From NCBI GenBank assembly GCA_036507005.1, contig DASXQT010000010.1, forward strand, positions 285-64,284: DNA of 64,000 nucleotides, read 5' to 3'. The stretch is from Candidatus Eiseniibacteriota bacterium (GTDB taxonomy: Bacteria; Eisenbacteria; RBG-16-71-46). A program made the position numbers and the translations under genes. The notes beneath the pieces were generated by a model. That model did no database searches and was not told where the DNA came from. It saw nothing but the letters and a program-made list of their open reading frames with translations. The stretch's first letter is position 1; each line of letters begins with the position of its first letter. Shown piece after piece: positions 164 through 58,622 of this stretch.

Positions 164-494
164 GGCCCGAAACTCCAGCGGGGGCTGGGTGTGATCTCGG
201 GGCCGCGGGGCACACACGTTGTATCACGGCATATTTCGGCGCACGCAGAGCCGCGGGGAACGCATATCAGGCAGCGCCACGAGCTTTTTCCTGCCGCGCA
301 GAGAAACACGCTGCGTGCGGGCATCCTGCGCGCGCTGGTGCGCGATGGCGACAACGGCGGCGCGCGTGGGATCCGGCGCGCGCGCAGGCCGTCAACACAA
401 GTCTTCGTCAACTCGACGGCGCTACGCGTGCCGAGCCCGAGACCATCCATCCCCCGATCCAGAAGCGTCCGAAGCTGCCCGGGGATCGCGAGCG

Positions 495-2675: not shown

Positions 2676-2851
2676 GCGGGCCGGCGAGACTACCCCGGCG
2701 CCGGGGTGGGCTCCAGCCCGCCGCGCCCGCGGGCCGGGCGAATCGCAGGGGTGCCGCGCCAGCCGCACCAGCGCCCGTTCCGCGAGAGCAGGCCTTTGGA
2801 GTATCCTGACGGTGCCCCTGCACCCATGAGAGCGCGCACACGGGAGATCGC

Positions 2852-4551: not shown

Positions 4552-4575
4552 GCCGAGGCCGGGCCCCGGAGCGGC

Positions 4576-5805: not shown

Positions 5806-5874
5806 GCACCGTTCAGGCTAGCCTTGGCTCGAAACGGAGGTCAACGGCGGCATGGCCTGGACGTGGAGCGGAGG

Positions 5875-6420: not shown

Positions 6421-6433
6421 CGGACGCGCAGGC

Positions 6434-8035
6434 TCAGTCGACGGCGGCGCGCTTCCCCGCGTAGAGCTTGGCGAAGTAGTCGGTCACCATGCGATGCGAG
6501 GTGAAGCGCTCCTCCGCCATCCGCAGGCTCGCGAGCATCATCTTCTTCCAGCGCGCGCGGTCGGCCCAGGCCGGCAGGACCTCGCGCTCCAGCGTGCCGA
6601 ACAGCGCCTCGTGATCGCTCGCGTCGTCGGTGGGGCGGCCGTCGCCGATCGCCCAGCCGTTCACGCCGTGCTCGCACGCCTCGGCCCACCATCCATCGGG
6701 GATGCTGAGGTTGAGCACCGCGTTCAGCGCCGCCTTCATGCCCGAGGTGCCGCAGGCCTCGAGCGGCAGGATGGGGTTGTTGAGCCACACGTCGCAGCCG
6801 CGCGTGAGCAGCCGCCCCAGCTCCATGTCGTAGTTCTCGAGGAACACGACGCGCCCCGGGTACTCGGCGCGCGCCTGGGCGAGGCGCGTCAGGATCGCCT
6901 TCCCGTGAGGGTCGTCGGGGTGCGACTTGCCGCTCAGCACGAGCTGCACGCGGCTCTCGCGCAGCAGCTTCGCGAGGCGCGCGGGGTCGCGCAGGATGAG
7001 GTCGCCGCGCTTGTAGGGCGCGGCGCGGCGCGCGAAGCCGATCCACGGCCCCCCGGGATCGAGCCGGACGCCGGTCGAGCGCTCGACCGCGAGCGCCAGA
7101 TCGTCGCGGTGGGCCGCGTGCGCCGCCCACAGCGCGTCGGGGTCGTGGCGCGCCGCGCGGATCTCCTCCGACTGCCAGGTCGGCGGGTGCACGCCGTTCG
7201 TGATCGCGAGGATCGGCGGGGCGCCATCGACCCCGGCCCACATGGTGCGCGCGGTCCGGCCGTGCAGCTCGGACACCGCGTTCGCGGCGCGCGCGAGCCT
7301 GAGCCCCGCCGCGGTCATGCTGAAGGGGTCGCCGCCCAGCGCGCGCATCTCGGCGGCCGAGAGCTCGAGCGATGCCCCCATGCGCTGCAGGTCCTTGAGC
7401 GAGTGCTCCTCGTTCCCGGCCCGCACCGGCGTGTGGGTGGTGAACACGATGCGGACGCGCACATCCTCCCACGCCTCCTCGAACGACATGCCCGCCGCCA
7501 TGCGCTCCGCGATCATCTCGACGCCCGCGAACACCGCGTGGCCCTCGTTGAAGTGGTAGGTCCCGATCGGGGTGGGCAGCCAGTTGAGCGCGCGCAGCCC
7601 GCCGATGCCGAGCAGCATCTCCTGCGCGATGCGCACGTCGCTGCCCGATTCGTAGAGCCGGTGCGTGATCCAGCGATCCTCGGCGCGCAGCGGCTCGATC
7701 AGATAGAGCGGCACGTGGCCGAAGCGGTCGGTGACCCAGACCATGCACGGCACCTCCTTGCGGCGCACCCGCACCCGCACGCGCACCCGCGTGTCGCGCA
7801 GGAAGGAGTGGTCGTAGCCCGGGAACTCCTCGAAGAGCTGGCCGTCCTCGCCGATCCGCTGCACGCAGTAGCCGCGGTCCCAGCGCAGGCCCACCGCGAC
7901 CACCGGGAGATCGAGGTCATGCGCCGACTTGATGAAATCGCCCGCCAGGATCCCGAGGCCCCCCGAGTAGATGGGGAACGACTCGTGCAGGCCGAACTCC
8001 ATGCAGAAGAACGCGACGTGTGGGACTCGGGGCAT
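6434..8035 (-). CDS. glgP: alpha-glucan (glycogen/maltodextrin) phosphorylase, GT35 family
   Basis: MPRVPHVAFFCMEFGLHESFPIYSGGLGILAGD matches the GT35 N-terminus. EACGTSGMKAALNGV is the PLP-lysine motif region. Confidence 0.85.
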   Translation of the reverse strand: MPRVPHVAFFCMEFGLHESFPIYSGGLGILAGDFIKSAHDLDLPVVAVGLRWDRGYCVQRIGEDGQLFEEFPGYDHSFLRDTRVRVRVRVRRKEVPCMVWVTDRFGHVPLYLIEPLRAEDRWITHRLYESGSDVRIAQEMLLGIGGLRALNWLPTPIGTYHFNEGHAVFAGVEMIAERMAAGMSFEEAWEDVRVRIVFTTHTPVRAGNEEHSLKDLQRMGASLELSAAEMRALGGDPFSMTAAGLRLARAANAVSELHGRTARTMWAGVDGAPPILAITNGVHPPTWQSEEIRAARHDPDALWAAHAAHRDDLALAVERSTGVRLDPGGPWIGFARRAAPYKRGDLILRDPARLAKLLRESRVQLVLSGKSHPDDPHGKAILTRLAQARAEYPGRVVFLENYDMELGRLLTRGCDVWLNNPILPLEACGTSGMKAALNAVLNLSIPDGWWAEACEHGVNGWAIGDGRPTDDASDHEALFGTLEREVLPAWADRARWKKMMLASLRMAEERFTSHRMVTDYFAKLYAGKRAAVD

Positions 8036-42305: not shown

Positions 42306-44192
42306 ATGAAGCGCAAGCGCAGCGAGCCGGGCGATCCGGAGCGCGGCCCGGCCGCGGACCGCGCGGCGGGCACGGAGCCCCGCGCTGCGGCTCCGGCGCC
42401 CGTGCCGGGCGCGGGGCCGGCGCCCGTTCCACCGACGGCCGCGGACCGCGCGGCGGGCGTGCTGGCCGCGGCGCTCGCGCTGCTCGCGGTCGCGCGCCTC
42501 GCGCTCGGGCTGCGTCCCTCGATGTGGCTGTGGGGGCTCGACGCGCTCGCGTTCGTGCCCCCGGTTCCGGGCTGGCTGCTGTGGGCGCTCGCCGCGCTCG
42601 CGCTGGTCCCGGCGCTCGCGCGCCCGGCGGGCGCGGCGCTCGCGCGCGCCGGAGACGCGATCGCCGACCGGCCCGCGCTCGCGAGCTTGGCACTCGGCGC
42701 GTTCCTGGCTACGACCGTGCTCCTGCTTCCCGATCGGCTCGAGCTGGTGGGTGACTACCTGCTGCGGGTCGGGACCGCGCGCGGCCAGATCCCGACCGAC
42801 ACGGTGTTCCCCCAGGCCCTGCCGCTCGACCTCGCCCTCCACTACACCGTGCCCAGCCTGTTCGCGCACGGCTTCACCGGAGATCCCAACGACGTTTCGC
42901 GCGTCCTCGGCGCGATCGAGGCCGCGATCCTGGCCGCGCTCGCGGTCGCCTTCGCGCGCGCGCTCCGGCTGCGTGGGGCGGCGGCGGCCGCGGCGGTCGC
43001 GACGGTCACCTTCGGCGGGGCGCTCGGCATGTTCACGGGGTTCGCCAAGGTATTCGGCGAGCTGTGCCTGGTCGCCACCGCCTTCGGCGCCTTCGGCATC
43101 ACCGCCGTGCGCGACGGGCGCGGGCTGCTGCCGCTCTCGCTCGCCGTGAGCGCGGGCCTCGTGCTCCACCGCTCGGCGCTCGCGTTCCTGCCGCCGCTCG
43201 CCGTGGTGTGGGCGGCGTGGCTCCGCGCCGACGGCGCGGGCGGAGCGTGGCGGCGCCCGGCCGCGATCGCGGCGCTCGCGCTCCCGCCCGTCACGCTCGC
43301 CCTGATGCTGCCGCGCATCCGCGCGGCGATCGAGAGCACCGACCGCCTGCACTTCGCGCGCGCGGGCGCGGGGCCGGCGCAGATCCTGGGCGCGGCGTTC
43401 CGCGGACTCCACCTCGCCGACCTCGGGAACCTCCTGCTTCTGCTTTCGCCGCTCGCGCTCGCCGGGATTCCGCTCGCGCTCGCGCTCCCGCCCGCGCTGC
43501 GGCGGCGGCCCGAAGCCCTGGTGCTGCTCGCGCTCGCCGTTCCGTTCGCGGGGCTCCTGCTCTTCGTCCACCCGCGCCAGGGCCAGTTCCGCGACTGGGA
43601 CGTGTTCACGCCCGCCGCGGTCGCGCTCTCGCTCCCCGCCGCCTGGCTGATCGGCGAGACGCTGCGCGCGCTGCGCCACGCCTGGCTCGCGGCCGCCGTG
43701 GTGCTCGGAACGCTCGCGCCCGCGGTGCAATGGCTGATGCACAATCACGACCTCGACCGCGGGATGGCGCGGGTCGAGGCCTACATCGCGGGCCCGCCCG
43801 CGCGCGGGGACGACGAGCGCGCCACGCTCCACAACTTCCTCGCGCTGCGCGACGAGGAGTACGGGCGGCTGGACGCCGCGGCGGAGAGCTACGCGCGGGC
43901 CGCCGCGCTCGCGCCGAGCCCGCGCATCCTGCTCGAGTGGTCGCTGGCCGAGACGAATCGCGGGCAGTACGCGAAGGCGCAGGGCATCCTGCGCGGGCTC
44001 GTGGAGCGTGCGCCCGGCCTGATGATGGCGTGGTCGCAGCTCGCCTACGTCTCGTATCAGCTCGGCGACACCGCCGAGTGCGTGCGCGCGGCGCGCGGCG
44101 CGCTCCGCATCGACCCCGGCCTGGCCGAGGCCCGGGGTCTGCTGAGCCGCCTCGCGCCCCCGGAGAGCGCGCATGTCGCGCCCGCTCGCTGA
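42306..44192 (+). CDS. polytopic membrane protein with C-terminal TPR domain, paralog 1 of 3 (unassigned family; glycosyltransferase-like architecture)
   Basis: About 10 hydrophobic helices are followed by TPRs (YARAAALAPSPRILLEWS..; AWSQLAYVSYQLGD). Motifs shared by all three paralogs: SMWLWGLD, VGDYLLR, FPQALPLDLALHY, LHRSALAFLP, GQFRDWD. Confidence 0.75.
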   Translation: MKRKRSEPGDPERGPAADRAAGTEPRAAAPAPVPGAGPAPVPPTAADRAAGVLAAALALLAVARLALGLRPSMWLWGLDALAFVPPVPGWLLWALAALALVPALARPAGAALARAGDAIADRPALASLALGAFLATTVLLLPDRLELVGDYLLRVGTARGQIPTDTVFPQALPLDLALHYTVPSLFAHGFTGDPNDVSRVLGAIEAAILAALAVAFARALRLRGAAAAAAVATVTFGGALGMFTGFAKVFGELCLVATAFGAFGITAVRDGRGLLPLSLAVSAGLVLHRSALAFLPPLAVVWAAWLRADGAGGAWRRPAAIAALALPPVTLALMLPRIRAAIESTDRLHFARAGAGPAQILGAAFRGLHLADLGNLLLLLSPLALAGIPLALALPPALRRRPEALVLLALAVPFAGLLLFVHPRQGQFRDWDVFTPAAVALSLPAAWLIGETLRALRHAWLAAAVVLGTLAPAVQWLMHNHDLDRGMARVEAYIAGPPARGDDERATLHNFLALRDEEYGRLDAAAESYARAAALAPSPRILLEWSLAETNRGQYAKAQGILRGLVERAPGLMMAWSQLAYVSYQLGDTAECVRAARGALRIDPGLAEARGLLSRLAPPESAHVAPAR

Positions 44193-46020
44193 GACGCGGC
44201 CCGGCGCCGCGCGCGCGCGGGCCGCGGGCGCGCGCGGGGCGCTGCCCGCCGAGCCATCGCGACTCGATTCCGCGGCCGCCGGGCGCGCCGCGCTCGCCGC
44301 ATGGGCCGCGCTCGTCGCGCTCGCCGGGGCGCGCGCGGCGCTCGCCTTCGCCCCCTCGACCTGGGCGTGGAGCCTGGCGCTGCTGCGCTTCCTGCCGCCC
44401 GTGCCGGGCTGGGGACTGTGGGCGCTTTCGGCCGTGACGCTCCTGCCCGCCGTCGCGCGGCTCGCCGCTCCGGCGGGCGCGCGCTTGGGCGACGCGGCGG
44501 CGCGTGCGCCCGCGCTCGCGGCTGCGGCGTGGGCCGCGGGCGGCGCGGCGTTGGCGTGGAGCCTTCCCGACCGCGCCGGGTTCGTCGGCGACTTCCTGCT
44601 GCGCGAGAACACCCTCGCCACCCAGGGCGTGTCGCTCGCGGAGTGGTATCCGCAGGCGCTCCCCCTGGACCTCGCGATCCACCACCACTTCGCCCGCGCG
44701 CTCATGCTCGCGACCGGCGCGACCGCGGCCGACGCGGGGCGGCTGATCGGCGCCGGCGACGCCGCGCTCATGGGCTGGCTCGCCGCGCTCTTCGCGCGTG
44801 AGCTCGCGCTGCGCGGGGCGGCCTCGTTCGCCGCGAGCGCCGCGGTGTTCGGGACCGGAGCGCTCACGCTCTTCACCGGCTACAACAAGGCGTTTGCCGA
44901 GATGACGCTGCTGGTCGCGGCGATCGGCATCCTCGGCCTCGGCGCCGCGCGCACCGGGCGCGGGCTCGTGCCCCTGCTCGCCGTCGCGGCCGCGGGCCTC
45001 ACGCTCCACCGCTCGGCGCTCGGCGTCCTGCCCGCGCTCGCGCTCGCGTGCGGGTGGGCGCTGCGCGCGGGCGGCCGCGCGGCGCTGAGGCGGCCCGCGA
45101 CCTGGGTCGCGCTCGCGCTGCCCATCGTGTCGCTCGCGTTCATGGTGCCGCGCATCGTCCACATCGTGCGCCACGTGGACCCGATCCACTTCACGCCCGC
45201 CGAGCCGGGACGGAGCGCCCTGGCCTCCGCGTTCGCGGGCGCGCGCCCCGCCGACATGCTGAACCTGATCGTGATGCTGGCGCCGCTCGCGCCCGTGGCC
45301 CTGGCCGCCGCCTTTGCGCTCGGCCCCGCGCTGCGCCGGCGCGAGGTCGCGCTGCTCGTGGCACTCGCCGCTCCCTTCGTTGCGCTCATCCCGTTCCTCC
45401 ACGCGCAGCAGGGCCTGTTCCGCGACTGGGACGACTTCGCCGCGGGCGGCATGGGCGCAACGCTGCTCTCCGCGTGGATCCTGGCCGAGACCCTGCGCGC
45501 CGCGCGCGCGCGTTCGTGGCTCGCGGTGCCGCTCGCGCTCGCGGCGCTCGCCCCCAGCGCGCAGTGGCTCGTGCACCACACCCAGCCGGAGCGCGCGCTC
45601 GCGCGGGTGCGCGCGTTCGTGGAGGAGCCGCCGTCGCGCACCTCGTTCGAGCGCGCGATGACCTGGCAGTATCTCGGCATGACCTACCTCGCCATGCACC
45701 GCGGCCCGGAGGCTGCGGACGCCTACGCGCACGCCGCCGAGCTGCTGCCGAGCCCGTACATCCTGCGCCAGCTCGGCATCGCCCAGTCGCTCGCGCGCCG
45801 CTACGGGAGCGCCGTCCGGACGTTCCGCACGCTCCTCGAGCGCGTGCCCGGCGACATCACCGCGCTGCGAGGGCTGATGCTGATGAGCCTTCCCGGCCAC
45901 GACACCGCCCAGGCGCGCGCCGCCGCCGAATCGCTGCTGCGCGTCTCGCCGCGGGATCCGCAGGCGATGGAGTTGCTGCGCCAGCTCGAGCGCGGGATCG
46001 GCAATGCGCGGCCGCGGTAG
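44173..46020 (+). CDS. polytopic membrane protein with C-terminal TPR domain, paralog 2 of 3
   Basis: The start overlaps the upstream gene by 20 nt. The same motif set is present (STWAWSL, VGDFLLR, YPQALPLDLAIHH, LHRSALGVLP, GLFRDWDDF). Confidence 0.75.
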   Translation: MSRPLAETRPGAARARAAGARGALPAEPSRLDSAAAGRAALAAWAALVALAGARAALAFAPSTWAWSLALLRFLPPVPGWGLWALSAVTLLPAVARLAAPAGARLGDAAARAPALAAAAWAAGGAALAWSLPDRAGFVGDFLLRENTLATQGVSLAEWYPQALPLDLAIHHHFARALMLATGATAADAGRLIGAGDAALMGWLAALFARELALRGAASFAASAAVFGTGALTLFTGYNKAFAEMTLLVAAIGILGLGAARTGRGLVPLLAVAAAGLTLHRSALGVLPALALACGWALRAGGRAALRRPATWVALALPIVSLAFMVPRIVHIVRHVDPIHFTPAEPGRSALASAFAGARPADMLNLIVMLAPLAPVALAAAFALGPALRRREVALLVALAAPFVALIPFLHAQQGLFRDWDDFAAGGMGATLLSAWILAETLRAARARSWLAVPLALAALAPSAQWLVHHTQPERALARVRAFVEEPPSRTSFERAMTWQYLGMTYLAMHRGPEAADAYAHAAELLPSPYILRQLGIAQSLARRYGSAVRTFRTLLERVPGDITALRGLMLMSLPGHDTAQARAAAESLLRVSPRDPQAMELLRQLERGIGNARPR

Positions 46021-47800
46021 AGGCGCGGCGCCAGCCCGCGCGACGCCGGCCGCCGCGCCCGAGGCGGCCGCGCGCGCCGCGTCGGCGCTCTGGTGGGTGC
46101 TCGCGATCTCCGCGGTCGCGCGGCTCGCGCTGGCGTTCGTTCCCTCGATGTGGCTCTGGGGCCTCAACGTTCAGCGCTTCCTCGCGACGGCGGCGGCGTG
46201 GGCGCCATGGGCGGCCGCCGCGCTGGCGCTTCATCCCGCGGTCGCCCGGGCGCTCCTCCCCGCGCTCGCGCGCGCGGGCAATGCGCTCGCCCGCCCGCGC
46301 GGAGTGGTGGTGGCGGCGCTCCTCGCCGCGATCCTCGTGCTCGCTCTGCCGGACCGCGTGCGGTTCGTCGGCGACTTCCTGCTGCGTCAGGGTACCGTGG
46401 AGCAGGCGGGGCGGCCCGCCGTGCTCTTCCCCCAGGCGCTGCCACTCGACGTGCTCCTCCACTACACGCTGCCGCGCACGCTGGTCGACATGCACCTGCT
46501 CGCCGCCAACGGCGCCGCGCGCGCGCTCGGGGCGCTCGAAGCCGCGCTGCTCGCCGCGCTGGCTGTCGCGTTCGCCCGGGGGCTGGCGATGCGCGACGCG
46601 GCGGCGCTCGCCACCGCCGCCGTCGTGTTCTTTGGTGGCACGCTCACCATGTTCACCGGGCTCGGCAAGGCATTCACCGAGATGGTGCTGCTGGTCGCCG
46701 CTCTCGGCGTCTTCGGCCTGCGCGTGCTGCGTGAGCGGCGGGGGCTCCTGCCGCTGGCCGCGACCCTCGCCGCCGGGCTCGCCCTCCACCGCTCGGCGCT
46801 CGGGCTCGTGCCCGCCGCGGCCCTCGCGTTCGCCTGGGGCGCGAGGCCGCATGCGGCCGAGGGCGAGGCGGTCCTCCGCCATCCGAAGGCGGAGTGGCTC
46901 ACCGCCGTCTCGATCGCGGTCCTCGCGCTCGCCGTGATGCTGCCGCGCATCGTCGCCACCATCCTGCGCTGGGACCCGATCCATCTCACTCCCCCCGAGG
47001 TGCGGGAGCAGGGCGTGGTGCGCGCCGCGTTCGCCGGCACGCGGCCCGCCGACCTGCTGAGCCTGGTCACCGCGCTCTCGCCGCTCGCGCTCGCGATCCC
47101 GCCGGTCGCGATCCTGCTCGGGCGCATCCCCGGTCGCGGGCGCGAGCTGGCGCTGCTCTCGGCGCTCGCCGTGCCCTTCGTGCTCAGCATGCCCCTGCTT
47201 CATCCCGCGCAGGGGCTGTTTCGAGATTGGGACGACTTCGCCGGCGCCGGGGAGGCGCTCTCGCTCGTCGCCGCGTGGCTCGTGGCCGAGACCCTGCGCG
47301 CGGCCCCTGGCCGCGCGTGGCTCGCGAGCGGCGTGACGCTCGCGGCCACCACCGCCGCGCTTCAGTGGCTCGCGCACTTCACGGACATCGAGCGCGGGCT
47401 AACGCGGGTCGAGGCGTTCATGAGCGAGCCGCCGCGGCGCACCGACGTCGAGCGCGGCAAGACCTGGGACTACCTCGGCATCCGCAACTTCCGTCTCGAG
47501 CGCTGGGACGCCGCCGCCCGCGCGTTCGCCCGCGCCGCCGAGACCTCGCCCAGCCCGCGCATCCTGCTCGAGTGGGGCACCGCCGAGCTGCGCCGGGGCG
47601 ACTTCCGCGCCGCGCAGCCCCTGTTCCGGCGCGTGATCGCGGCGAACCCGAAGGACGTCCACGCCTGGTCCGGGCTCGCCGCCGCCGCCATGGCGCTCGA
47701 CCAGCGCGACGAGGCGCGGCGCGCGGCCGAGGAGGTGCTGCGGCTCAGTCCTGGCGATGCGTTCGCGCGGCGGACGCTGGAGCGGCTCGGCGCGCCGTAA
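46004..47800 (+). CDS. polytopic membrane protein with C-terminal TPR domain, paralog 3 of 3
   Basis: The start overlaps the upstream gene by 17 nt. Motifs SMWLWGLN, VGDFLLRQGT, FPQALPLDVLLHY, LHRSALGLVP, GLFRDWDDF. A hairpin CGCCCCCG-n13-CGGGGGCG follows at 47830-47859. Confidence 0.75.
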   Translation: MRGRGRGAAPARATPAAAPEAAARAASALWWVLAISAVARLALAFVPSMWLWGLNVQRFLATAAAWAPWAAAALALHPAVARALLPALARAGNALARPRGVVVAALLAAILVLALPDRVRFVGDFLLRQGTVEQAGRPAVLFPQALPLDVLLHYTLPRTLVDMHLLAANGAARALGALEAALLAALAVAFARGLAMRDAAALATAAVVFFGGTLTMFTGLGKAFTEMVLLVAALGVFGLRVLRERRGLLPLAATLAAGLALHRSALGLVPAAALAFAWGARPHAAEGEAVLRHPKAEWLTAVSIAVLALAVMLPRIVATILRWDPIHLTPPEVREQGVVRAAFAGTRPADLLSLVTALSPLALAIPPVAILLGRIPGRGRELALLSALAVPFVLSMPLLHPAQGLFRDWDDFAGAGEALSLVAAWLVAETLRAAPGRAWLASGVTLAATTAALQWLAHFTDIERGLTRVEAFMSEPPRRTDVERGKTWDYLGIRNFRLERWDAAARAFARAAETSPSPRILLEWGTAELRRGDFRAAQPLFRRVIAANPKDVHAWSGLAAAAMALDQRDEARRAAEEVLRLSPGDAFARRTLERLGAP

Positions 47801-47829
47801 GCCCGCGCGTCACCGATTCCAAACAGGGA

Positions 47830-47859
47830 CGCCCCCGAGTCCTTTCAAGCCCGGGGGCG
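47830..47859 (+). terminator. terminator-like GC hairpin
   Basis: CGCCCCCG-agtcctttcaagc-CGGGGGCG, 30 nt after the stop at 47800. There is no U-tract. Confidence 0.4.
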
Positions 47860-48094
47860 CCTGGTGATCGAGTCCAGCTCTAGACCGCAGCGGCCGGCTG
47901 CTCGGCGCCGTCCTCGATGGTGTGGTGAGGGAGCGCGCGAAGCTCGACCTCGGTCAGCTCGAGGCCGAGACGCCGCTGGGGGTCGAATCCCGGGGGACCT
48001 TTCAAGGCGGGAAGATGTCGGGGCCGGAGTAGAAGGTGCTACGCTCCGTAGCGCAATCGTAACACCCACGTTGAGTCTGTGCAGGAGACCGAGC

Positions 48095-48904
48095 ATGGCC
48101 CCATCGGTGATTGATTCGCTTCAGGGAGTGGTCGTCCATCAAGAGGCCCTGATTCTCGCCCTCAATCATCGTGTCGACTCGCTGCTGGCCGCCGTTCCCG
48201 ACACCGTGCGAGACACCATCTGGGCTGGTTTCATGGACCAGCGACCACATGGACTCGGAATCGCGCCAAAGGACGTGATCGGATGGGTGGTGACTGCTGC
48301 CGGCATTTTCGCGGCAGGCTGGGTCGCGCGGACTGGCTGGAATCGATCAGACAGTGCGGGACGCCGTTTGCAGAAGGATCGTCACGAAACCGAAGAACGG
48401 AGGATGCGCGAGCAACTCGTGCTTCGGATCCGCGGAACACTGGAGACGATGAGAGCCACCGCCGCGTCGACGCTGAAGAAGGACGCCACTCACCCGATCA
48501 ATCCAGAGACCATGAACAACATCCTCGTCGCCTGGAAGCGCTTCGACCGCGTGTCGGACAACTTGTGGCTGCTCAATGACCTCGTGATGCAGGACCGGAT
48601 CGAGACAATCACGGAGTTCGGGCGCATGACTGCCGAAAAGATCAGGGAGGACGAGCAGCGGTTCCGCGAGACCCGCGTACTCCTAGGGCAGAGGTCTCCG
48701 GAGGCGTTGATTGTCCACCCCTCGCTCGTCACGCGGGCCGTGGACCAGCGCACAAAGCTGCTGACGGTCGTGACGAAGCTCCGTGACACGACAGCTGGGC
48801 TTCTGATCGATTTCAACGCCAAATGGCCGCCGGTGGCCGGGCACACTGAGCGCACCGAACCCGAAACTAGCAGCGACGAAATGCCTCCGGTCAATCCGAG
48901 CTAG
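48095..48904 (+). CDS. hypothetical protein (one predicted TM helix), islet gene
   Basis: SD GCAGGAG before ATG 48095. TM segment VIGWVVTAAGIFAAGWVA. No family recognised. The 3' end overlaps the convergent gene by 4 nt. Confidence 0.55.
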   Translation: MAPSVIDSLQGVVVHQEALILALNHRVDSLLAAVPDTVRDTIWAGFMDQRPHGLGIAPKDVIGWVVTAAGIFAAGWVARTGWNRSDSAGRRLQKDRHETEERRMREQLVLRIRGTLETMRATAASTLKKDATHPINPETMNNILVAWKRFDRVSDNLWLLNDLVMQDRIETITEFGRMTAEKIREDEQRFRETRVLLGQRSPEALIVHPSLVTRAVDQRTKLLTVVTKLRDTTAGLLIDFNAKWPPVAGHTERTEPETSSDEMPPVNPS

Positions 48905-49473
48905 CGCCGGACCCCGCGTGAGCGTGACCGTCGGGGAAACCATTGAAGAAAGAGAGGGCCACGGTAGGCGTCCAACTTTCGGCGCAGCGTGTAGAGATCC
49001 CCGATTGCCGTGAGGAACGGCATCGTGCCGAGGGACGAGATGCCCGCTGGAAGCAACGACGTCGGGCTGCCCTCGGGCACAAATGGCAGTTGGGCGGGCT
49101 TGTAGTTCTGCTGTTGCCAGTAGGCGGTCGAGTAGGCGCTCTTGATCTTGTCTCGGATCTCCATCTCGAGCGGCGGGTTCTCGAGTTCAGAGACGCGGGC
49201 TTCCGAATCGACAAGTTCCTTTAGCCACGTAACGCACTGAGACAGGTGCCAAGGCTGGTAATACTGAGCCTGCATCTTCTGTTGGTTCTCAGCTTCCTTC
49301 AATCCGTCGGAGATCTTTCCGAAGTAGTGGTGCAGGTGGCGAGCTGTAGTCTGACGCCTTACGGCTCGTTGAAACCAGTGCCGGAAGTAGATGGCGTACA
49401 CACTCACGGCTGCGCCACCGATGAACGCTGTGATCGTCTTTGGCGTTATCCAAGCGGATAGCCACGACGGCAT
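48901..49473 (-). CDS. hypothetical membrane-anchored protein, islet gene
   Basis: N-terminal TM helix (ITAFIGGAAVSVYAIYF). Lower-GC codon usage. No family recognised. Confidence 0.55.
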   Translation of the reverse strand: MPSWLSAWITPKTITAFIGGAAVSVYAIYFRHWFQRAVRRQTTARHLHHYFGKISDGLKEAENQQKMQAQYYQPWHLSQCVTWLKELVDSEARVSELENPPLEMEIRDKIKSAYSTAYWQQQNYKPAQLPFVPEGSPTSLLPAGISSLGTMPFLTAIGDLYTLRRKLDAYRGPLFLQWFPRRSRSRGVRR

Positions 49474-49794
49474 TGTGTTCGCTCCTCCTTGATCGCATAC
49501 GCCCCCTTTCCCACTGAGAGCGCAGCTTCGAAAGATGGCGGCGAATGAGCCTCGTTAGTTGGCGTTCCAGAGCAGGCCGTAGACCAAGTCGACTGAGCGT
49601 GGGTGGGCCTGGCTTTTGTCTACCCTCGAACTTCAGCCGGTTTTGGTGACGCGGACTCGCTGACGACCGCTAGAGACTGTTTGGGCAACAAGAGTCGGCC
49701 GCGGGATGCAGCCGCGACCAGCTTCTGGCTTCGAAACGGAGTTTTCGTGCTCTGCATCAGCATGCGTTCAGCGTGGCAGGTCCATGGGCGTCGT

Positions 49795-50496
49795 CTAGGG
49801 TGACTTGTCCACAGGCGCCCGTGAGTCCACGATCGACAGCAGATGGCTCGCGAGGATGATCATCTCAACCGACTCCTTCGGTTGAAGGTCGATCGGACGA
49901 TGACTGTGTGGGTTCTTGTACGATCCGATTGCCCCGACAAAGAGGTCTCGCAGCGCCTGTCGCTCGCCACCCTCGCGATCCATGTTAGTCAGCGGACCGC
50001 CTTCGGGATTGAACGCCGCCTTCATAAGGGCGACACCGATGTCCTTGTCATGGAAACCGCCGGCCGCGCGCACCGAAATCTCGACCTCCCGGAACGCCTC
50101 AAACACCGCGTTCTGGTAATCCCCGCGAGCAAATGCCTTCCAAACACGACTCAGAAGCTTCGGATGGAGCAGGTCTTTCGAAAGGAGGGTCGCGAGGCGC
50201 ATATCAGCAAACGACCCCGCAGCAGCGGCCTTGCCTTTCTTCGAGACGGAGTACCAGTCGTCAGTGGACCTCGTGAGGAAGCCCTGGGCTTCGAGAATGC
50301 TCCAAGCTCCCAGGAAGAGCTGCTCGACCCACTCTTCGCGGCCGAATGCTCTCCAACAGTCTCCCCGGAAGTTGTAACGGTTGAGCTTGGCCCTGTTCTC
50401 TTCGCTGGTCACGAGGAAACGTAGCAGCGCTTCGGAAATGTCCTCAGGCGCCAGTTCACGTACCACGGCGACTGGAAAGCTCACTTGCAAGGTCAT
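49795..50496 (-). CDS. TIGR02391 / Hypoth_Ymh (PF09509) family protein
   Basis: The C-terminal region LHPKLLSRVWKAFARGDYQNAVFEAFREVEISVRAAGG...IGVALMKAAF...LRDLFVGAIGSYKNPHSHRP...EMIILASHLLSIVD fits the Hypoth_Ymh consensus (AVFEAFK.VE..VR, G..LM..AF, G.....RNP.AH, ASHLL..VD). The start is taken at the internal ATG 50496. The longer ORF to 50604 would overlap the integrase start head-to-head. Confidence 0.65.
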   Translation of the reverse strand: MTLQVSFPVAVVRELAPEDISEALLRFLVTSEENRAKLNRYNFRGDCWRAFGREEWVEQLFLGAWSILEAQGFLTRSTDDWYSVSKKGKAAAAGSFADMRLATLLSKDLLHPKLLSRVWKAFARGDYQNAVFEAFREVEISVRAAGGFHDKDIGVALMKAAFNPEGGPLTNMDREGGERQALRDLFVGAIGSYKNPHSHRPIDLQPKESVEMIILASHLLSIVDSRAPVDKSP

Positions 50497-50596
50497 CTCT
50501 AGGGCCTTCCTGACACCGACCCTCCTTCGGGGGGGCCCTGTACCGGTTCGTGGAGGCTCGGGAAGGATAGTTCCGATGCCGAAACGACCAAAAAAC

Positions 50597-51150
50597 ATGG
50601 TCAAACACGGGAGAATGTACTACTTCCGCGACAAGGCCGGCGGGCGTGATCGCCGCGTCTCCGCCCCCGGAACGATTACGGCGAAGCACTCGTCCGGTTT
50701 CGATCTTTGAAACGCGGTCGCCGTTCCCGCGGCGACTGCCGAGGATTCAGGAGCGACCGCCGGATCGACTGAGCGACGGCGAGATCGAGCGGGTGTTCTC
50801 GCTCGAGGATCCGTACGGGTTCATCGGACGATTCCTGGTCGGCACTGGCCTGCGGTGGGGCGAGCTGACAAGGGCCCGGTCTTCTGATGTCTCGGGCAGC
50901 CGGCTCCGCCCCTTGCGGAACGCGGACGGCTTCAATGTCCAGATTCGCGGGCGGGCAGGGATTCCGGGCTTCAATGCTCACCAGCTTCGGCACACATTCG
51001 CGTGCGGGTAGCTGGATGCTGGCGGAAGTCTGGCCGCTCTTCAGGAAATCCTCGGGATCGCCTCGATCGTGACGACGCAGCGTTACGGCCGTCTCGGCGA
51101 GGCGCACGCGCAGGCCGAAGCAGCACGATTGCAGGGGACGGCACCTCTCT
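50597..51150 (+). pseudogene. tyrosine recombinase/phage integrase remnant (fragmented: frameshift plus in-frame TAG)
   Basis: Frame 2 encodes the integrase N-terminus (MVKHGRMYYFRDKAGGRDRRVSAPGTITAKHSS). Frame 0 encodes the catalytic-domain pieces (LSDGEIERVFSL, FLVGTGLRWGELTRARSSDV, HQLRHTFACG), then a TAG at 51013-51015, then LDAGGSLAALQEILGIASIVTTQRYGRL (the conserved LLGH.S..TTQ.Y.H tail). The total is far shorter than an intact ~350-400-aa integrase. Confidence 0.7.
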
Positions 51151-51171
51151 AAGTCGTGTACCTACGGCCCC

Positions 51172-51220
51172 GGAGAGGTGCGAGAGCGGCTGAATCGCGC
51201 GGTCTCGAAAACCGCCCAAG
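51172..51220 (+). tRNA. tRNA-Ser(CGA) 5' fragment (acceptor 5' strand, D-arm, anticodon arm); no T-arm or 3' acceptor, so probably a pseudo-tRNA or att remnant
   Basis: GGAGAGG-TG-CGA-GAGCGGCTGAA-TCG... GCGGT-CTCGAAA-ACCGC. U8 and the D-loop GG are present. AGCGGCTGAA and GGTCTCGAAAACC are near-identical to E. coli tRNA-Ser(CGA). Downstream sequence lacks GGTTCGAATCC or the acceptor complement. Confidence 0.5.
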
Positions 51221-51294
51221 AGGACAGATTCGTTCGCCCATGGCCTGCCGACGCCTCCGCCTGCTCGCCGACGCCGCGCCTAGCGGCGGGCGCC

Positions 51295-51978
51295 TCACCA
51301 ATACAAGCTGAGCCCCAGCGTGTACGTCATCAGGTTCCCGCCGATGTGCGCCGCGACCACGCGCGCGTACTCGGCCTCGAGGCCCAGTCCCAGCGACTGC
51401 CGTATCCTGAAGTCGTAACCCGCGGCCGCGGTGGCGGCGAACCCGGCGTCCTGTTGCCATACCCCTCCGGAGCCGGCGGGCGCGAGGGTCTCCACCCGCT
51501 CCTCGCACACTCCGCCGCCGCCGCGCACGTAGAAATGGCGCGCGCTTGGGTACGCCGTGGCGGTCGCGGTGATGATCTCGAGCCGGCGGTCGAGGCCCGA
51601 CTGCGAACCAGTCCAGCCCCTGGCCTGGAACCCCGCGAGCACGCCGGGCGCCACAACGTGTCCGACACGAAACTGCGTCATGGTTCCGGACTTGCGGCCG
51701 AGCGGATCGCCTTCCATGTCCAGGCTGCCGGCGCCCATGTTCAGGCCCAGCACCCAGGCGCTCGGCTTCAGCGGCGTGCGCTCCTTCGGGGCTTTCGGCG
51801 CCTTCGCGACCTTGGGTGCCTTCTCGGCTTTCGGCGCCTTGGGCGGCTTCGGCGCCTTCTCGTGCTTCTCGGCCGCGGGCTTCGACTCTTTCGGGGTCTT
51901 CGACTTTGCCGCCGCCGGCGAAGGAAGCGCGAGGGCGGCGCACAGGAGGAGCAGCAGGGGCAGCGGAATGCGCTTCAT
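51295..51978 (-). CDS. outer-membrane beta-barrel protein with N-terminal Lys/Pro/Ala (KAPK) repeat linker
   Basis: Signal peptide MKRIPLPLLLLLCAALALPSPAAA. KAPKPPKAPKAEKAPKVAKAPKAPK repeats. The C-terminus ...YTLGLSLYW has the terminal aromatic of an OM barrel. Confidence 0.7.
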   Translation of the reverse strand: MKRIPLPLLLLLCAALALPSPAAAKSKTPKESKPAAEKHEKAPKPPKAPKAEKAPKVAKAPKAPKERTPLKPSAWVLGLNMGAGSLDMEGDPLGRKSGTMTQFRVGHVVAPGVLAGFQARGWTGSQSGLDRRLEIITATATAYPSARHFYVRGGGGVCEERVETLAPAGSGGVWQQDAGFAATAAAGYDFRIRQSLGLGLEAEYARVVAAHIGGNLMTYTLGLSLYW

Positions 51979-52111
51979 CGGATTCTCCATGGATCGACGA
52001 TGCCGTGCGCGGCCGGCCGTGGATGCGATAGGATGCGCCGTCCGCCAGTGGTCCGGGAACGTTAGCCCGTGCGGCCCGAGACCTCAAGAAGCCACCGGCC
52101 GAGCGCTCCCC

Positions 52112-54290: not shown

Positions 54291-54432
54291 CCTATCCGCG
54301 GCCGCCGCACCCCACAACTCTTTGCCGGACTAAAGGCTTGCTGCTATTTTGCCGATGATTTGACGAAGCTCGGTGCGGTGCCGGCTTCTGCCCCGGCCCG
54401 ACCGGGACCTTCGTCCGGGAGTTCCTCTCGAC

Positions 54433-55707
54433 ATGGCAGTCGTCCGCTTCCTCCAGGTCTCCGACCTCCATCTCGGCCGCCCGTTCGGCTGGCTCTCGCC
54501 CGAGCGCCGGGCGGAGCGGCGCGCCGACCAGCGCCGCGCTCTCGAGCAGGCGGTGCGCGAAGCCATCGAGCGCGGCACCCACGCCATCCTCCTCCCCGGC
54601 GACCTGTTCGACGTCGAGGGCGCGGACGCGGCGACCATGGCGTTCGCGCTCAACGTGTTCGGCATCTCGGGCTGTCCCCCGGTGTTCATCGCCCCCGGCA
54701 ACCACGATCCGTGGTCCGAGGCGAGCCACCTGTGGAGCCCGCGCCTCCTCAAGGCGCGCGGCTGGGCATGGCCCCCGCACGTGCACGTCTTCACCACCCC
54801 GGGCTGGACCGGGAAGCGCCTGCCGGGGCTCCCGGCGGTGCGCATCTGGGGGCGCGCCTTCACCTCGCACGCCCAATCGAGCGAGCGGCCGCTGCGCGAG
54901 GGCTCGGTGATCCTCGCGGACTCGGCCGACGCCATGGGGCTCGAGGTCGCGGTCTTCCACGGCTCGCGCGAGGGCCTGTGCCCGCCGGGGCAGACGGTGA
55001 CCGCGCCGTTCTCGGACCGCGAGCTGACGAACTCGCCGTTCGGCTACCACGCGGTCGGGCACTACCACGTGCCATCGACCATCGAGCAAAGAGCCGCCGA
55101 GACGAGCGTCTCGACCTCGGGACGGGGCGTGGCCGGCGCCGCCTCGGCCGGCGTCCGCATGGCGTACGCGGGCTCGGCGATCGCGCTCGACACGGGGGAG
55201 ACCGGCGTCCACGGCGCGCTCGAGGTGCGGGTCGAGTACGAGCTGCGCCAGCCCCTGATCGAGATCCGGCCCGTCGAGCTCGACCCGCGCCGCGTGCACG
55301 CGCTCGAGGCCGACGTGACCGGAGCGGCGAGCGCCGAGCAGGTGGACGCGCGCGTCCAGCGCGCGATGGAGGAGGCGGGCGTGACCGAGCGCGACATCGT
55401 GACCGTGCGCCTCACCGGGCGGCTGGTGCACGGCGTGCGCTACGCCGGCCCCGGCGTAGCACTCAGGCCCCATGCGTTCCACCTGCGGGTGGACCTGCGC
55501 GCGGTGCGGCCGGACTACGACCTCGACGCCTACCGGCGGGCCGATCCCACCACCACCGAGGAGCGGTTCGCGGCCACCCTGCTCGCGAACCTCGAGGCCG
55601 AGCCGGATCCCGAGAAGCGGGCGCTGCTCGAGAGCGCCCTCTACTACGGGCTCGACGCGTTCCGGCTGCGCGAGGTGGTCCCGGGCTACGAGGAGCTGGG
55701 GGCGTGA
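54433..55707 (+). CDS. SbcD/Mre11-family DNA-repair exonuclease (YhaO/SbcF-like calcineurin-fold phosphoesterase)
   Basis: Metallophosphoesterase motifs VRFLQVSDLHLG, LLPGDLFD and APGNHD. The stop overlaps the ATPase start (GTGA). Confidence 0.8.
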   Translation: MAVVRFLQVSDLHLGRPFGWLSPERRAERRADQRRALEQAVREAIERGTHAILLPGDLFDVEGADAATMAFALNVFGISGCPPVFIAPGNHDPWSEASHLWSPRLLKARGWAWPPHVHVFTTPGWTGKRLPGLPAVRIWGRAFTSHAQSSERPLREGSVILADSADAMGLEVAVFHGSREGLCPPGQTVTAPFSDRELTNSPFGYHAVGHYHVPSTIEQRAAETSVSTSGRGVAGAASAGVRMAYAGSAIALDTGETGVHGALEVRVEYELRQPLIEIRPVELDPRRVHALEADVTGAASAEQVDARVQRAMEEAGVTERDIVTVRLTGRLVHGVRYAGPGVALRPHAFHLRVDLRAVRPDYDLDAYRRADPTTTEERFAATLLANLEAEPDPEKRALLESALYYGLDAFRLREVVPGYEELGA

Positions 55708-58622
55708 AGATCCACGCGCTCAAGGCCGACGGGTTCGGTGCGCTGCGCGGCGAGTTCCGCTTCGATCCCTCGCGCCTGAACCTGGTGGTGGGCGAGAACG
55801 AGCGCGGCAAGTCCACGCTGCTCGCCGCCGTGACCGCGGCCCTCTACGGGCTCGAGGTCGACCGCCGCAGCCATCGCGTGCTCACCCCGGCCGAGCGCTG
55901 GCGCCCGTGGGACGGCGGCGCCTACCGCCTCGAGCTCGAGGTCGAGCACGCAGGCGAGCGCTACACCATCCGCCGCGACTTCGAGTCGGGCACGGTCGAG
56001 GTGTGGACCGCGGACGGGCAGGAGGTGTCCGAGCGCTTCCGCAGCGGCAAGGAATCGTGGCCGATCGGCCAGCACCTGTTCGGCCTCAACGTCTGGGAGT
56101 TCGAGAAGTGCGCCCTGGTGCGCCAGGGCGAGCTGGAGTCGGTGGTGCCCTCGGACGAGAAGGGGCGCCGCAGCTCGACGCTCCACGCGCGCCTCGAGAG
56201 CGCGGCCGACACCTCGGTCGGGGACACCAACGCGGTCGAGGCCGCGCAGGTGCTCGAGGCGGCGGCCCAGGCCTACAACTGCGTGGAGCTCGGGAGCACG
56301 ATGAGGGTCGAGACCGCGATCGCGCGGCTCGAGCAGAAGCGCCTGGCGCTCGAGGGCGAGATCCAGGCGCTGGAGCGCGACTTCGAGAAGCTCTCGGGCC
56401 CGTTCGACGACCTGGTGCGGCTCGGCGAGAAGGAGGACGGCGCGCGCGAGGCCCTGGCCCGCATCGACAGCGAGCGCCGCGAGACCCTGGCCGCCGACGT
56501 GCGGCGCAAGCTCGCCGACAACGACGAGCGCCGGCGCGAGCTGGACGAGCTGCGCGCCGAGGCCGCGAAGCTCGCCTCGGCCGCGAAGATGCCCACCAAC
56601 GCCGAGGCCGAGCTGCGCGAGACCGTGGCGCGCCACGAGGAGGCGCAGCGCAATCTCGAGCAGCTCGAGACGCGGCGCGACGAGGAGCAGGCGCGCGAGC
56701 GCGGCAGCCTCGCGGCCGAGCTCGAGAGCCTCAAGGCGTACGCCTCGTGCGCGCCCGAGGACGCCGACCGGCTGGTGGCGATGGCGTCCGAGATCCGCCG
56801 CATCGCCGAGGAGGACGGCCGGGCGCGCACCGCGGTGTTCGAGTTGCGCGACTCGCTGGCCGGCCAGGGCCACGTCCCGGAGCGCCTCCAGTTCCTGAGC
56901 GGGCGCTTCCGCACGCTGCCCGAGGCCAAGCAGAAGCTGCTGCGCGGGCAGTTCGACATGCAGCTCCAGTTCCAGACCGAGGTCGCGGAGCTCGAGAAGG
57001 CCCGCACCGAGAGCACCGAGGCGCTGCGCGAGATCGAGGCGATGCGCAACGCCCGCCGCAGCCCGGGCTGGCTGCTGCTGGCGTTCGGCCTGGGCTCGAC
57101 GATCGCCGGCATCGTGCTGCTCGGGCTCCGGCTCCAGCCCGCGGTGTGGATCTCGCTGCTCGCGAGCGGCAGCGTCGTGCTCGGCACCGGCATCTGGCTG
57201 CTCAAGACCGGCGCCAACCTGCGCGAGGCCGATCGCGAGAACGCGTTGAGCCGCCTGGGCGACGCGCAGCGCCGGCTCAACCAGATCCGCATCCAGCGCA
57301 CCGAGAGCGAGAAGACGCTCAACGAAACCTCGCGCGCCCTCGGCTATCGCGACGCGATCGAGCTGATCCGCGACTGGAACGAGTACGTGCGCCTCACCGA
57401 GGAGAGCACGCCGGTGATGCGGGCCCAGGAGACGCTCGCCACCCTCGAGACGCAGCGCAAGCAGGTGCTGCAGGACGCGGGCGCGCTGCTCGCGCGCGCC
57501 GGCGGCGGGACGCCCGACCCCGCCCACCTCGAGCGCGCCGCGGCCGGCATCCGCCACCACCTCGCGGTGCGCCAGCGCCTCGCGGAGATGGAGAAGAGCT
57601 GGGGATGGATCGACCAGGAGAAGGGCGCCAACCAGGGCGCCGCCGCCGGGCTCAAGGAGCGCGCGATCCGCATCCTCCAGTCCGCCGGGATCACCTACGA
57701 CGCCGCGCGCGGCTGGCCCGAGCACATCGCCGAGCTGAGCCAGCGCTCGCGCGGGCGCTCGCGCCACACCACGCTGGTCGACGAGCTGATCCCGCAGGCC
57801 CAGCGCCGGCTGCTGCCCGAGCCGACCGTCGAGGAGCTGAAGAGCCAGCTCGACCTCCTGCTCGCCGAGCGCGGCAAGGGCATCGCCCCGGCCAAGGGCG
57901 CGGCTCCGCCGGCGGCGCGCGCGCAGGCCGAGATCGAGGTCGAGACCCGCAAGAATCGCGAGGAGCTGGAGGAGCTGCAGCGCAAGCGCTCCGACCTCAG
58001 GCTCCAGGTCGAGGAGGCGTGGCGCAAGCACCACGCCGAGCACCCGGAGAAGGTCGCCGAGCTCGAGCGCGTGGGCCGGGCCCTCGAGCGCGCGCGGCGC
58101 TTCAAGCACGCGATCGAGATCGCGCGCGAGACGATCCAGCGCGTGGCGCACGAGACCCACCGGCGCTGGGCCGAGTACCTGAACCAGCGCGTCACCCGGA
58201 TCCTCGCCGACCTCGGCGCGCAGGTCGAGGAGCTGCGCTTCGGCGAGGACCTCGACTTCTCGGTGCGCTTCGCGAACAGCCAGCCCGCGACGCGCGCGCG
58301 CGCCATGCTCCAGCTCTCGACCGGGGCGCGGGACCAGCTCTACCTGGCGCTGCGTCTCGCGATCAGCGAGTACCTGTCGCGCGGTGCCGACCCGCTGCCG
58401 CTGCTCGTGGACGACGCCTTCGCCACCAGCGACGACGAGCGCGCGCGCGAGGGCATGCGGCTCATGCTCGAGCACCTGTCGAAGAGCCACCAGATCATCT
58501 TCGTGACCTGCCACCGCCAGCGCTACGTGGGCTTCGCCGAGCAGGACGCGGCGCTCTACGGCGAGCGCGTCCACTGGCTGGATCCGGTCGCCACCTCGGG
58601 CGTGGCGCCGGAGCAGGGGTAG
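55704..58622 (+). CDS. SbcC/Rad50-like AAA ATPase with central membrane hairpin (YhaN/SbcE-like)
   Basis: N-terminal Walker A NLVVGENERGKSTLL. Long coiled coils flank a 2-TM insert (WLLLAFGLGSTIAGIVLLGL...ISLLASGSVVLGTGIWLL). The C-terminal signature/Walker B/D-loop is LSTGARDQLYLALRLA...PLPLLVDDAFATSDDER. Confidence 0.8.
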   Translation: MKIHALKADGFGALRGEFRFDPSRLNLVVGENERGKSTLLAAVTAALYGLEVDRRSHRVLTPAERWRPWDGGAYRLELEVEHAGERYTIRRDFESGTVEVWTADGQEVSERFRSGKESWPIGQHLFGLNVWEFEKCALVRQGELESVVPSDEKGRRSSTLHARLESAADTSVGDTNAVEAAQVLEAAAQAYNCVELGSTMRVETAIARLEQKRLALEGEIQALERDFEKLSGPFDDLVRLGEKEDGAREALARIDSERRETLAADVRRKLADNDERRRELDELRAEAAKLASAAKMPTNAEAELRETVARHEEAQRNLEQLETRRDEEQARERGSLAAELESLKAYASCAPEDADRLVAMASEIRRIAEEDGRARTAVFELRDSLAGQGHVPERLQFLSGRFRTLPEAKQKLLRGQFDMQLQFQTEVAELEKARTESTEALREIEAMRNARRSPGWLLLAFGLGSTIAGIVLLGLRLQPAVWISLLASGSVVLGTGIWLLKTGANLREADRENALSRLGDAQRRLNQIRIQRTESEKTLNETSRALGYRDAIELIRDWNEYVRLTEESTPVMRAQETLATLETQRKQVLQDAGALLARAGGGTPDPAHLERAAAGIRHHLAVRQRLAEMEKSWGWIDQEKGANQGAAAGLKERAIRILQSAGITYDAARGWPEHIAELSQRSRGRSRHTTLVDELIPQAQRRLLPEPTVEELKSQLDLLLAERGKGIAPAKGAAPPAARAQAEIEVETRKNREELEELQRKRSDLRLQVEEAWRKHHAEHPEKVAELERVGRALERARRFKHAIEIARETIQRVAHETHRRWAEYLNQRVTRILADLGAQVEELRFGEDLDFSVRFANSQPATRARAMLQLSTGARDQLYLALRLAISEYLSRGADPLPLLVDDAFATSDDERAREGMRLMLEHLSKSHQIIFVTCHRQRYVGFAEQDAALYGERVHWLDPVATSGVAPEQG

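Follow-up and report, generated by a model that had tools for sequence, protein, structure and literature searches.

An islet of low guanine-plus-cytosine (GC) content in a Candidatus Eisenbacteria genome probably preserves the cargo of a small integrative element that has lost its mobility, with three open reading frames (ORF1, ORF2 and ORF3) as separate and unrelated accessory genes. The islet lies in a 64,000-nucleotide (nt) stretch of DNA (hereafter the window; GenBank contig DASXQT010000010.1, positions 285 to 64,284), part of a 260,525-bp contig of a metagenome-assembled genome, and had been read in a first-pass annotation as a cassette of two membrane-anchored proteins and one TIGR02391/Hypoth_Ymh protein. 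We consider the element dead because its integrase gene is a pseudogene, only the 5' half of a tRNA-Ser(CGA) is left and no attachment (att) repeats are recognisable. We consider the genes independent because they do not co-occur elsewhere, have no conserved neighbour and are interrupted by a terminator-like hairpin after ORF3. As such the islet is an ordinary decayed genomic island, and the only new lead it yields is the ORF1 family, a reasonable candidate defence gene whose function is a prediction only.

The islet departs sharply from its host in composition (Table 1). GC content is 0.57-0.62 across 48.0-50.7 kb, whereas it is 0.75-0.81 up to 47.8 kb and ~0.70 beyond 51.2 kb, and GC at third codon positions (GC3) is 0.71-0.75 in ORF1, ORF2 and ORF3 versus 0.93 in the adjacent host gene. 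From this contrast we take the three ORFs to be foreign to the host and alike in composition; their GC content by codon position is nearly identical, and each has a Shine-Dalgarno-like motif 7-10 nt 5' of its start codon. The left edge of the islet was set by the drop in GC and the right edge by the end of a tRNA-Ser fragment, and no direct att repeat was found, the segments 47780-48100 and 51000-51400 having no common word of at least 10 nt.

Table 1. Features of the islet, in window positions.
Feature	Position	Strand	Description
Low-GC islet	47990..51215		edges approximate; ~3.2 kb, ~60% GC inside a ~76% GC contig
ORF1	48095..48904	+	269 aa; predicted single-pass membrane protein, rare uncatalogued family
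CTAG palindrome	48901..48904		holds the stops of convergent ORF1 and ORF2; read from the sequence
ORF2	48901..49473	-	190 aa; ORFan, N-terminal hydrophobic anchor at residues 12-30, then a basic stretch
Terminator-like hairpin	49696..49720	-	75 nt 3' of the ORF3 stop, within the 321-nt ORF3-ORF2 spacer
ORF3	49795..50496	-	233 aa; winged-helix-like N-terminus (~15-100) and C-terminal Ymh/TIGR02391 HEPN-type domain
Tyrosine-integrase pseudogene	50577..51150	+	divergent from ORF3; tblastn against the L008 integrase
tRNA-Ser(CGA) 5' fragment	51172..51215	+	44 nt, beginning 22 nt after the integrase pseudogene

The integrase remnant was recognised by tblastn against an intact 327-aa integrase from L008, one of the loci that carry an ORF1 homologue (1e-36, 43% identity). 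Relative to that protein the remnant has lost residues 31-144 and ~40 residues preceding the HxLRHTFA box, its reading frame shifts near 50700, and a TAG at 51009-51011 stands where HTFAC should be followed by Trp. Pfam and NCBIfam matches to the remnant are all sub-threshold, and the JGI annotation places no integrase-length gene at 50577-51150, only a 31-aa ORF on the opposite strand. The first-pass description of an integrase-bearing islet therefore stands insofar as foreign low-GC DNA adjoins an integrase-type gene, but because that gene is degraded the element is not functionally integrase-bearing.

The tRNA-Ser fragment corresponds to the first 44 nt of the tRNA with one mismatch, taking in the 5' strand of the acceptor, the D arm and the complete anticodon arm but not extending into the variable arm. 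The match includes ~25 nt of flank on the upstream side; there is 89% identity over 66 nt to L008 and to a second ORF1-homologue locus, L092, each of which has an intact tRNA-Ser(CGA) (2236-2325 and 2241-2330, respectively). An alternative reading of the tRNA-like stretch as an intact but unusual tRNA was rejected, since neither ARAGORN nor Rfam finds a tRNA in the window. Both L008 and L092 preserve, intact, the order HTH_17 gene, tyrosine integrase, ORF1 homologue and tRNA-Ser(CGA); the shared order of integrase, ORF1 homologue and tRNA-Ser points to an origin of ORF1 in a lineage of tRNA-Ser-associated elements, and the window thus appears to hold a decayed and rearranged copy of one of them. 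The position of the element, 5' of the tRNA-Ser sequence, is unusual among tRNA-targeting islands. Either the attP of the element or a disrupted host tRNA may be the source of the fragment.

All three ORFs are present as first described, with a single transmembrane (TM) helix in ORF1 and an N-terminal anchor in ORF2. The reported 4-nt overlap of their stops is also borne out: the TAG of ORF1 occupies 48902-48904 and that of ORF2 is the complement of 48901-48903, so that both lie in one shared CTAG. On the other side of ORF2, a consensus scan identified the hairpin that follows ORF3, with a 9-bp stem containing seven GC pairs and a T-rich tail. We considered a hidden RNA or antitoxin in the spacer between ORF3 and ORF2 and rejected it, as this 321-nt segment has no Rfam match, is no more structured than expected (z=+1.5) and offers no credible small ORF.

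The case for independent genes comes mainly from other genomes. A pattern scan covering one genome per species matched 299 stretches, 277 of which encode ORF3 relatives, distributed over many bacterial phyla and some archaea, and we fetched 80 of these ORF3-family loci for neighbourhood analysis. No relative of ORF1 or ORF2 occurred within ±8 kb of any of them. Clustering of the ORFs within ±5 kb likewise revealed no conserved neighbour, the sole non-ORF3 cluster being common to just four loci. The 132 nearest neighbours represented 94 different Pfam families, most commonly integrases (4), N6 methyltransferases (2), AbiEii (2) and TatD (2); GmrSD, a staphylococcal-type nuclease and many housekeeping enzymes appeared once each. 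PADLOC models assigned one or two of the neighbours each to AbiE, type I and type IIG restriction-modification (R-M), HEC-06, mad and capP. The closest relative of ORF3 (75% identity) does not share its neighbours but lies beside an HU gene and the gene for an unrelated 321-aa protein. The family is also found in 36 plasmid records (16 near full length), on nine IMG/VR contigs and in a phage. Given this variety of neighbours and the plasmid and phage copies, we view ORF3 as a mobile stand-alone gene whose contexts are partly of the defence or mobile-element type.

The phage copy is gp29 of the temperate Burkholderia phage KS9 (locus L100, NC_013055.1 38440-39201), a full-length member of the ORF3 subfamily with 39% identity. 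It lies in an accessory region beyond the lysis cassette, beside genes for an SOS-response-associated peptidase and a DNA methyltransferase.

These surveys bear directly on the proposal that the three genes form one defence or addiction system, with sensing or anchoring assigned to the two membrane proteins and the effector role to the HEPN protein. The genes are adjacent on a single foreign islet, ORF1 and ORF2 have overlapping convergent stops, and HEPN effectors often work with partner proteins (PMC3710099), all of which fit such a system. Yet the trio was found at 0 of the 80 ORF3-family loci and at 0 of the ~10 ORF1-family loci, ORF2 is without any homologue, and within the islet the genes lie on different strands, with the 321-nt spacer and its hairpin between ORF3 and ORF2. 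Looking for the three genes together in other genomes, as the first-pass annotation had proposed, thus turned up no co-occurrence, and on that ground the three-gene system is largely refuted. We regard it as very improbable, and the cassette should not be carried forward as a new system.

The first-pass annotation had extended ORF3 to a TTG at 50604, which gives a 269-aa version of the protein. The start is almost certainly the ATG at 50496 instead, judging from a GGAAGG 8 nt upstream, the 233-aa calls made by both JGI and NCBI, and the alignment of homologues (228-250 aa) from residue 1 onwards. The family assignment itself was correct: the C-terminal ~125 residues match Pfam Hypoth_Ymh (PF09509; 6.4e-24, 84.6 bits against a cut-off of 25), and NCBIfam TIGR02391 also scores above its threshold (2.2e-17, 63.3 bits against 39.45). 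The family is no longer uncharacterised, as had been stated, since Anantharaman et al. assigned Ymh to the HEPN superfamily of predicted RNases in 2013 (PMC3710099). They described solo proteins, fusions to paraMORC, AbiJ-NTD1/2 and AbiTii, and R-M operon contexts. ORF3 has 3099 homologues, and because most of them cover more than 90% of the protein, the N-terminal ~100 residues must also be conserved in a large subfamily; membership of a conserved family likewise marks ORF3 as a real gene.

That N-terminal region, which had been considered unassignable, has a recognisable if distant likeness. An AlphaFold2 model of ORF3 (predicted local distance difference test, pLDDT, 88.6) places three helices and a beta-hairpin ahead of a helical C-terminal domain (helices 112-123, 127-146, 154-161, 176-193 and 206-226). 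A whole-protein Foldseek search returned winged-helix regulators as its top matches (IdeR/DtxR with probability 0.99, PadR and VanR), with E-values of only ~0.06-0.3; HEPN structures were not among these matches, the search being dominated by the winged-helix domain. A PDB profile search with the N-terminal segment gave a marginal match to the winged helix of AspA. On the model, the Foldseek matches and the AspA match we call the N-terminus winged-helix-like.

The most conserved stretch of ORF3 is G-S-Y-K-N-P-H-S-H-R at residues 191-200 (window ~49897-49926, - strand), just before the last helix of the model. It comprises K194-N-P-H-S-H199 followed by R200, and reads K-N-P-x-S-H-R in 26 of 26 aligned subfamily members; the same Lys-for-Arg variant is present in KS9 gp29. 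The corresponding residues of distant Ymh proteins, encoded on plasmids of Halopenitus and Herpetosiphon, are R-N-P-x-x-H, with N, P and H invariant throughout. PADLOC models matched ORF3 weakly, namely PD-Lambda-3_B (5e-6, residues 104-243 of the 269-aa version) and an Argonaute-associated HEPN model (5e-4). PHROGs gave marginal matches only, and no Abi_C or AbiJ_NTD match was found in Pfam at E≤1.

The motif raises the question of whether ORF3 is a nuclease at all. It could instead bind DNA as a regulator or have a HEPN fold without catalytic activity, for instance as a repressor or antitoxin-like factor of the element, and several observations are in keeping with this: K-N-P-x-S-H replaces R-N-P-x-x-H in every one of the 26 members while distant Ymh proteins retain the Arg, the N-terminal domain resembles winged-helix transcription regulators, and ORF3 and the integrase are divergently oriented, as is typical of a regulator gene. 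Against it, G-S-Y-K-N-P-x-S-H-R is the most strictly conserved region of the protein, as expected of an active site; the change to Lys is conservative, the His is followed by an invariant Arg, and the family has no conserved neighbour gene to regulate or neutralise. We therefore hold the non-nuclease alternative to be unlikely and favour a HEPN RNase. ORF3 is a new member of a known, computationally characterised family, in which the subfamily-wide motif variant is noteworthy. As a single gene without a partner, the winged-helix and Ymh subfamily offers a simple candidate for asking whether a K-x4-H HEPN is an active, triggerable RNase.

ORF1 belongs to a family that existing catalogues have missed. 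The first-pass annotation did not recognise either membrane protein, and in this respect the model libraries agree, as ORF1 has no match in Pfam, NCBIfam, PADLOC or PHROGs; but the protein is no orphan. A word-indexed search of 5.8 billion proteins returned seven homologues, and an exhaustive profile search of 1.84 billion representatives extended the family to 66 representative clusters at a 50% identity threshold, of which 23 had E≤1e-30. A scan of JGI metagenomes for ORF1 added three short loci only, and no relative of the family was present in a viral contig collection. Across 26 members, R111, R149, R152, D155, E187 and R219 are invariant and a signature W-x-R-Y-D-R-[VLM]-[SA]-D is apparent. 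Membership of this conserved family makes ORF1 a real gene, and to judge from the alignment the family is clearly under selection. Tested against the same model libraries, the 26 members gave scattered single matches with E>1e-3.

The gene has an AGGAG 7 nt 5' of its ATG and encodes a short N-terminal segment, a TM helix (~60-79, the most hydrophobic 19-residue window being 60-78), a four-helix bundle and a Pro-rich tail. In the AlphaFold2 model residues 1-60 are of low confidence and are followed by one long helix that spans the hydrophobic segment; the bundle (~95-245) has a pLDDT of 76-94 per 10-residue block, mostly 85-94. A basic stretch follows the hydrophobic segment, which by the positive-inside rule suggests that the bundle is cytoplasmic (N-out, C-in). 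A PDB sequence search with the ORF1 profile found nothing meaningful (E≥0.13), and Foldseek E-values were no lower than 0.069 for the PDB or 0.025 for the predicted viral structures of BFVD, with no match at E<0.02. We rejected the structural analogues that did appear as generic helical bundles, de novo designs, FAT domains and tape-measure segments. The longer family members (462, 379 and 318 aa) contain no recognisable fused domain. We also rejected the idea that the bundle is a divergent HEPN domain: ORF1 lacks R-x4-6-H and the conserved motif sits in the second bundle helix. Comparison with the Ymh profile by hhalign (probability 0.15%) indicates that the ORF1 and ORF3 families are unrelated.

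What the ORF1 family offers is its surroundings, which we could assess at ~10 informative loci. At L001 (a soil metagenome contig, 1-6867) the gene immediately upstream of the ORF1 homologue encodes an AbiJ_NTD4/DUF7014/Abi_C HEPN protein, itself preceded by the gene for a PDC-M54A candidate defence protein (6e-240), and a serine recombinase is nearby. The same serine recombinase is shared by L096, where a MqsA-like HTH gene and a Dsr1-like protein also surround the homologue. The L002 homologue lies between a type I R-M operon and GmrSD, and that of L006 stands beside Vsr, BamHI and a methyltransferase; on contig P0129 the order is GIY-YIG, C5-methyltransferase and Vsr, then the homologue with a 4-nt overlap. 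At L007 a tRNA-Lys is upstream and a PD-T7-5/PD-T7-1-like nuclease downstream. DUF4238 adjoins the homologue at L004, and the neighbours at L095 are unknown genes. Together with L008 and L092, associations of the defence or mobile type are seen in ~8 of the 10 contexts, and the only recurring neighbours are recombinases.

This pattern identifies ORF1 as a recurrent stand-alone cargo of integrative elements and defence islands. By guilt by association in those ~8 of 10 contexts, ORF1 is most likely a single-gene exclusion or defence factor at the inner membrane that acts alone, and the accessory defence-type role suggested by the first-pass annotation is reasonable for both ORF1 and ORF3, each having relatives in restriction, abortive-infection or mobile-element contexts. 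A broader formulation, which we put forward only tentatively, is that the whole family is an unrecognised stand-alone anti-phage or entry-exclusion factor at the inner membrane, spread into R-M and defence islands by tRNA-targeting tyrosine-integrase and serine-recombinase elements, and that it might cooperate with neighbouring HEPN or restriction genes. The family is a small, uncatalogued set of membrane proteins with neighbours that are overwhelmingly restriction, Abi or recombinase genes; new defence genes are by standard practice nominated from neighbourhoods of this kind, and one gene suffices for a test of the family.

A more specific partnership would pair an ORF1-family protein, as membrane sensor, with a neighbouring protein that joins an N-terminal domain (NTD) to a HEPN RNase, Ymh here and AbiJ-like in L001. 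An NTD-HEPN protein is indeed close by in 2 of the ~10 ORF1 contexts: in L001 the AbiJ-like gene ends 104 nt upstream of the ORF1 homologue on the same strand, and in the window the Ymh gene is 0.9 kb from ORF1. The eight other ORF1 contexts have no HEPN neighbour, however, and an ORF1 relative is found at 0 of 80 ORF3-family loci. Given how often HEPN genes occur in defence islands, two coincidences are to be expected, and in the window ORF1 and ORF3 are on opposite strands with ORF2 between them. This two-gene module is accordingly improbable, and we keep to the reading in which ORF1 and ORF3 are separate cargo.

ORF2 is the one islet gene for which no family emerged. The search of 5.8 billion proteins returned only itself, no relative was found at any ORF1-homologue locus, near the 80 ORF3-family loci or in viral contigs, and there was no PHROGs match; profile comparison by hhalign led us to reject a relationship to the ORF1 family. 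It could be that ORF2 is not a gene and that the islet carries two genes only. Besides the missing homologues, stop-free runs of at least 190 codons arose in 105 of 500 shuffles of the islet (21%), so that the length of ORF2 is not significant on its own, and its start differs between annotations (166 aa in NCBI, 190 aa in JGI). Yet its codon-position GC (GC1/2/3 of 0.57/0.47/0.73) matches that of ORF1 and ORF3, all other frames contain at least one further stop, a strong AGGAGG lies at suitable spacing, 10 nt 5' of the ATG, and without ORF2 some 0.9 kb of the islet would be non-coding. We think a two-gene islet somewhat unlikely. On its codon-position GC, its Shine-Dalgarno sequence and two independent gene calls, ORF2 is a probable, though unproven, real gene that would encode a lineage-specific orphan membrane protein of no assigned role.

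Taken as separate cargo, ORF3 and ORF1 would each work on its own. By inference from the HEPN superfamily, ORF3 would be a dimeric, normally silent RNase; sensing of a nucleic acid or phage component by the winged helix would relieve inhibition and release the RNase, following the abortive-infection logic proposed for AbiJ-like NTD-HEPN proteins. ORF1 would act alone at the inner membrane in exclusion or defence, its predicted cytoplasmic bundle presenting the conserved Arg, Asp and Glu residues.

Several points weigh against this interpretation. The defence roles of ORF1 and ORF3 rest on guilt by association, and the ~10 informative ORF1 contexts are mostly short metagenomic contigs. Many ORF3-family neighbours are housekeeping genes, so the family occurs outside defence islands as well. 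RNase activity is made less certain by the Lys that the whole ORF3 subfamily has where canonical HEPN proteins have Arg. As modelled, ORF1 folds into a generic helical bundle that resembles no informative structure and discloses no mechanism, and ORF2 might not be expressed at all. Finally, the boundaries of the islet are approximate.

To the left of the islet, at 42306-47800 (+), three tandem overlapping paralogous genes (42306-44192, 44173-46020 and 46004-47800; GC 0.75-0.81) encode multi-pass membrane proteins of ~600-630 aa each with C-terminal TPR repeats. The last of these TPR genes is followed at 47826-47862 by a GC-rich hairpin, CGCCCCCG...CGGGGGCG, with the loop TCCTTTCAAG. A 74%-similar copy of this loop region lies 157 nt further on, at 47985-48015, where GC drops, and the GC-rich segment between hairpin and copy (47864-47990) contains no convincing gene. 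Directly to the right of the islet, 51295-51990 (-) encodes a 231-aa protein with a signal-peptide-like N-terminus; within its gene, 51767-51873 consists of 9-nt (3-aa) tandem repeats that encode (K/E)APKAPK-type units. About 3 kb to the right, at host GC, 54373-58622 (+) encodes an SbcD-like metallophosphatase (444 aa) and then a ~970-aa SMC/AAA_23 coiled-coil ATPase, an SbcC/Rad50-like pair.

Compared with known systems, ORF3 is closest to the Ymh/HEPN family (PMC3710099), whose members it resembles in being a solo protein with an unrelated N-terminal domain and a C-terminal domain predicted to be helical, and in having some relatives in R-M, Abi or mobile contexts. It differs in carrying K-N-P-H-S-H in place of the canonical HEPN motif R-x4-6-H, and in its winged-helix-like module, which has no Pfam match and is not among the fusion partners listed for Ymh (AbiJ-NTD1/2, AbiTii and paraMORC). 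AbiJ-type proteins have a similar plan, in which one polypeptide joins a sensor or inhibitor at the N-terminus to a HEPN toxin at the C-terminus and no dedicated antitoxin gene is needed; ORF3 nevertheless lacks an Abi_C/AbiJ_NTD match, and the AbiJ-like protein adjoins an ORF1 homologue in L001, not here. In a HEPN-MNT pair a nucleotidyltransferase would be expected, and Pfam finds no such domain in ORF1 or ORF2, nor is any neighbour conserved across the 80 ORF3-family loci. PD-lambda-3 came out of an E. coli pangenome screen (Vassallo et al. 2022; PMC9519451), shows abortive-infection behaviour and served as an Abi control in PMC13190303. ORF3 resembles its component B weakly and partially (5e-6), and the component A model matches neither ORF1 nor ORF2 nor the integrase fragment, so that the two components are not found together; a review table lists a PD-(D/E)XK nuclease in PD-lambda-3, and the islet encodes none.

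Like tRNA-associated islands, the islet has an integrase gene at its edge, a tRNA-Ser sequence, deviant GC and accessory cargo; it differs from them in that the integrase is a pseudogene, the tRNA is cut at the variable arm and no att repeats were found. For ORF1 the comparison is with SNIPE, a membrane-anchored phage defence made of a single protein (PMC13190303), to which it has no sequence or structural similarity and from which it differs in having neither a nuclease nor a DUF4041 domain, nor any recognisable enzymatic domain. The analogy is functional only: ORF1 likewise has one TM helix on its N-terminal side, the bulk of the protein predicted to be cytoplasmic, and contexts of the defence-island type.

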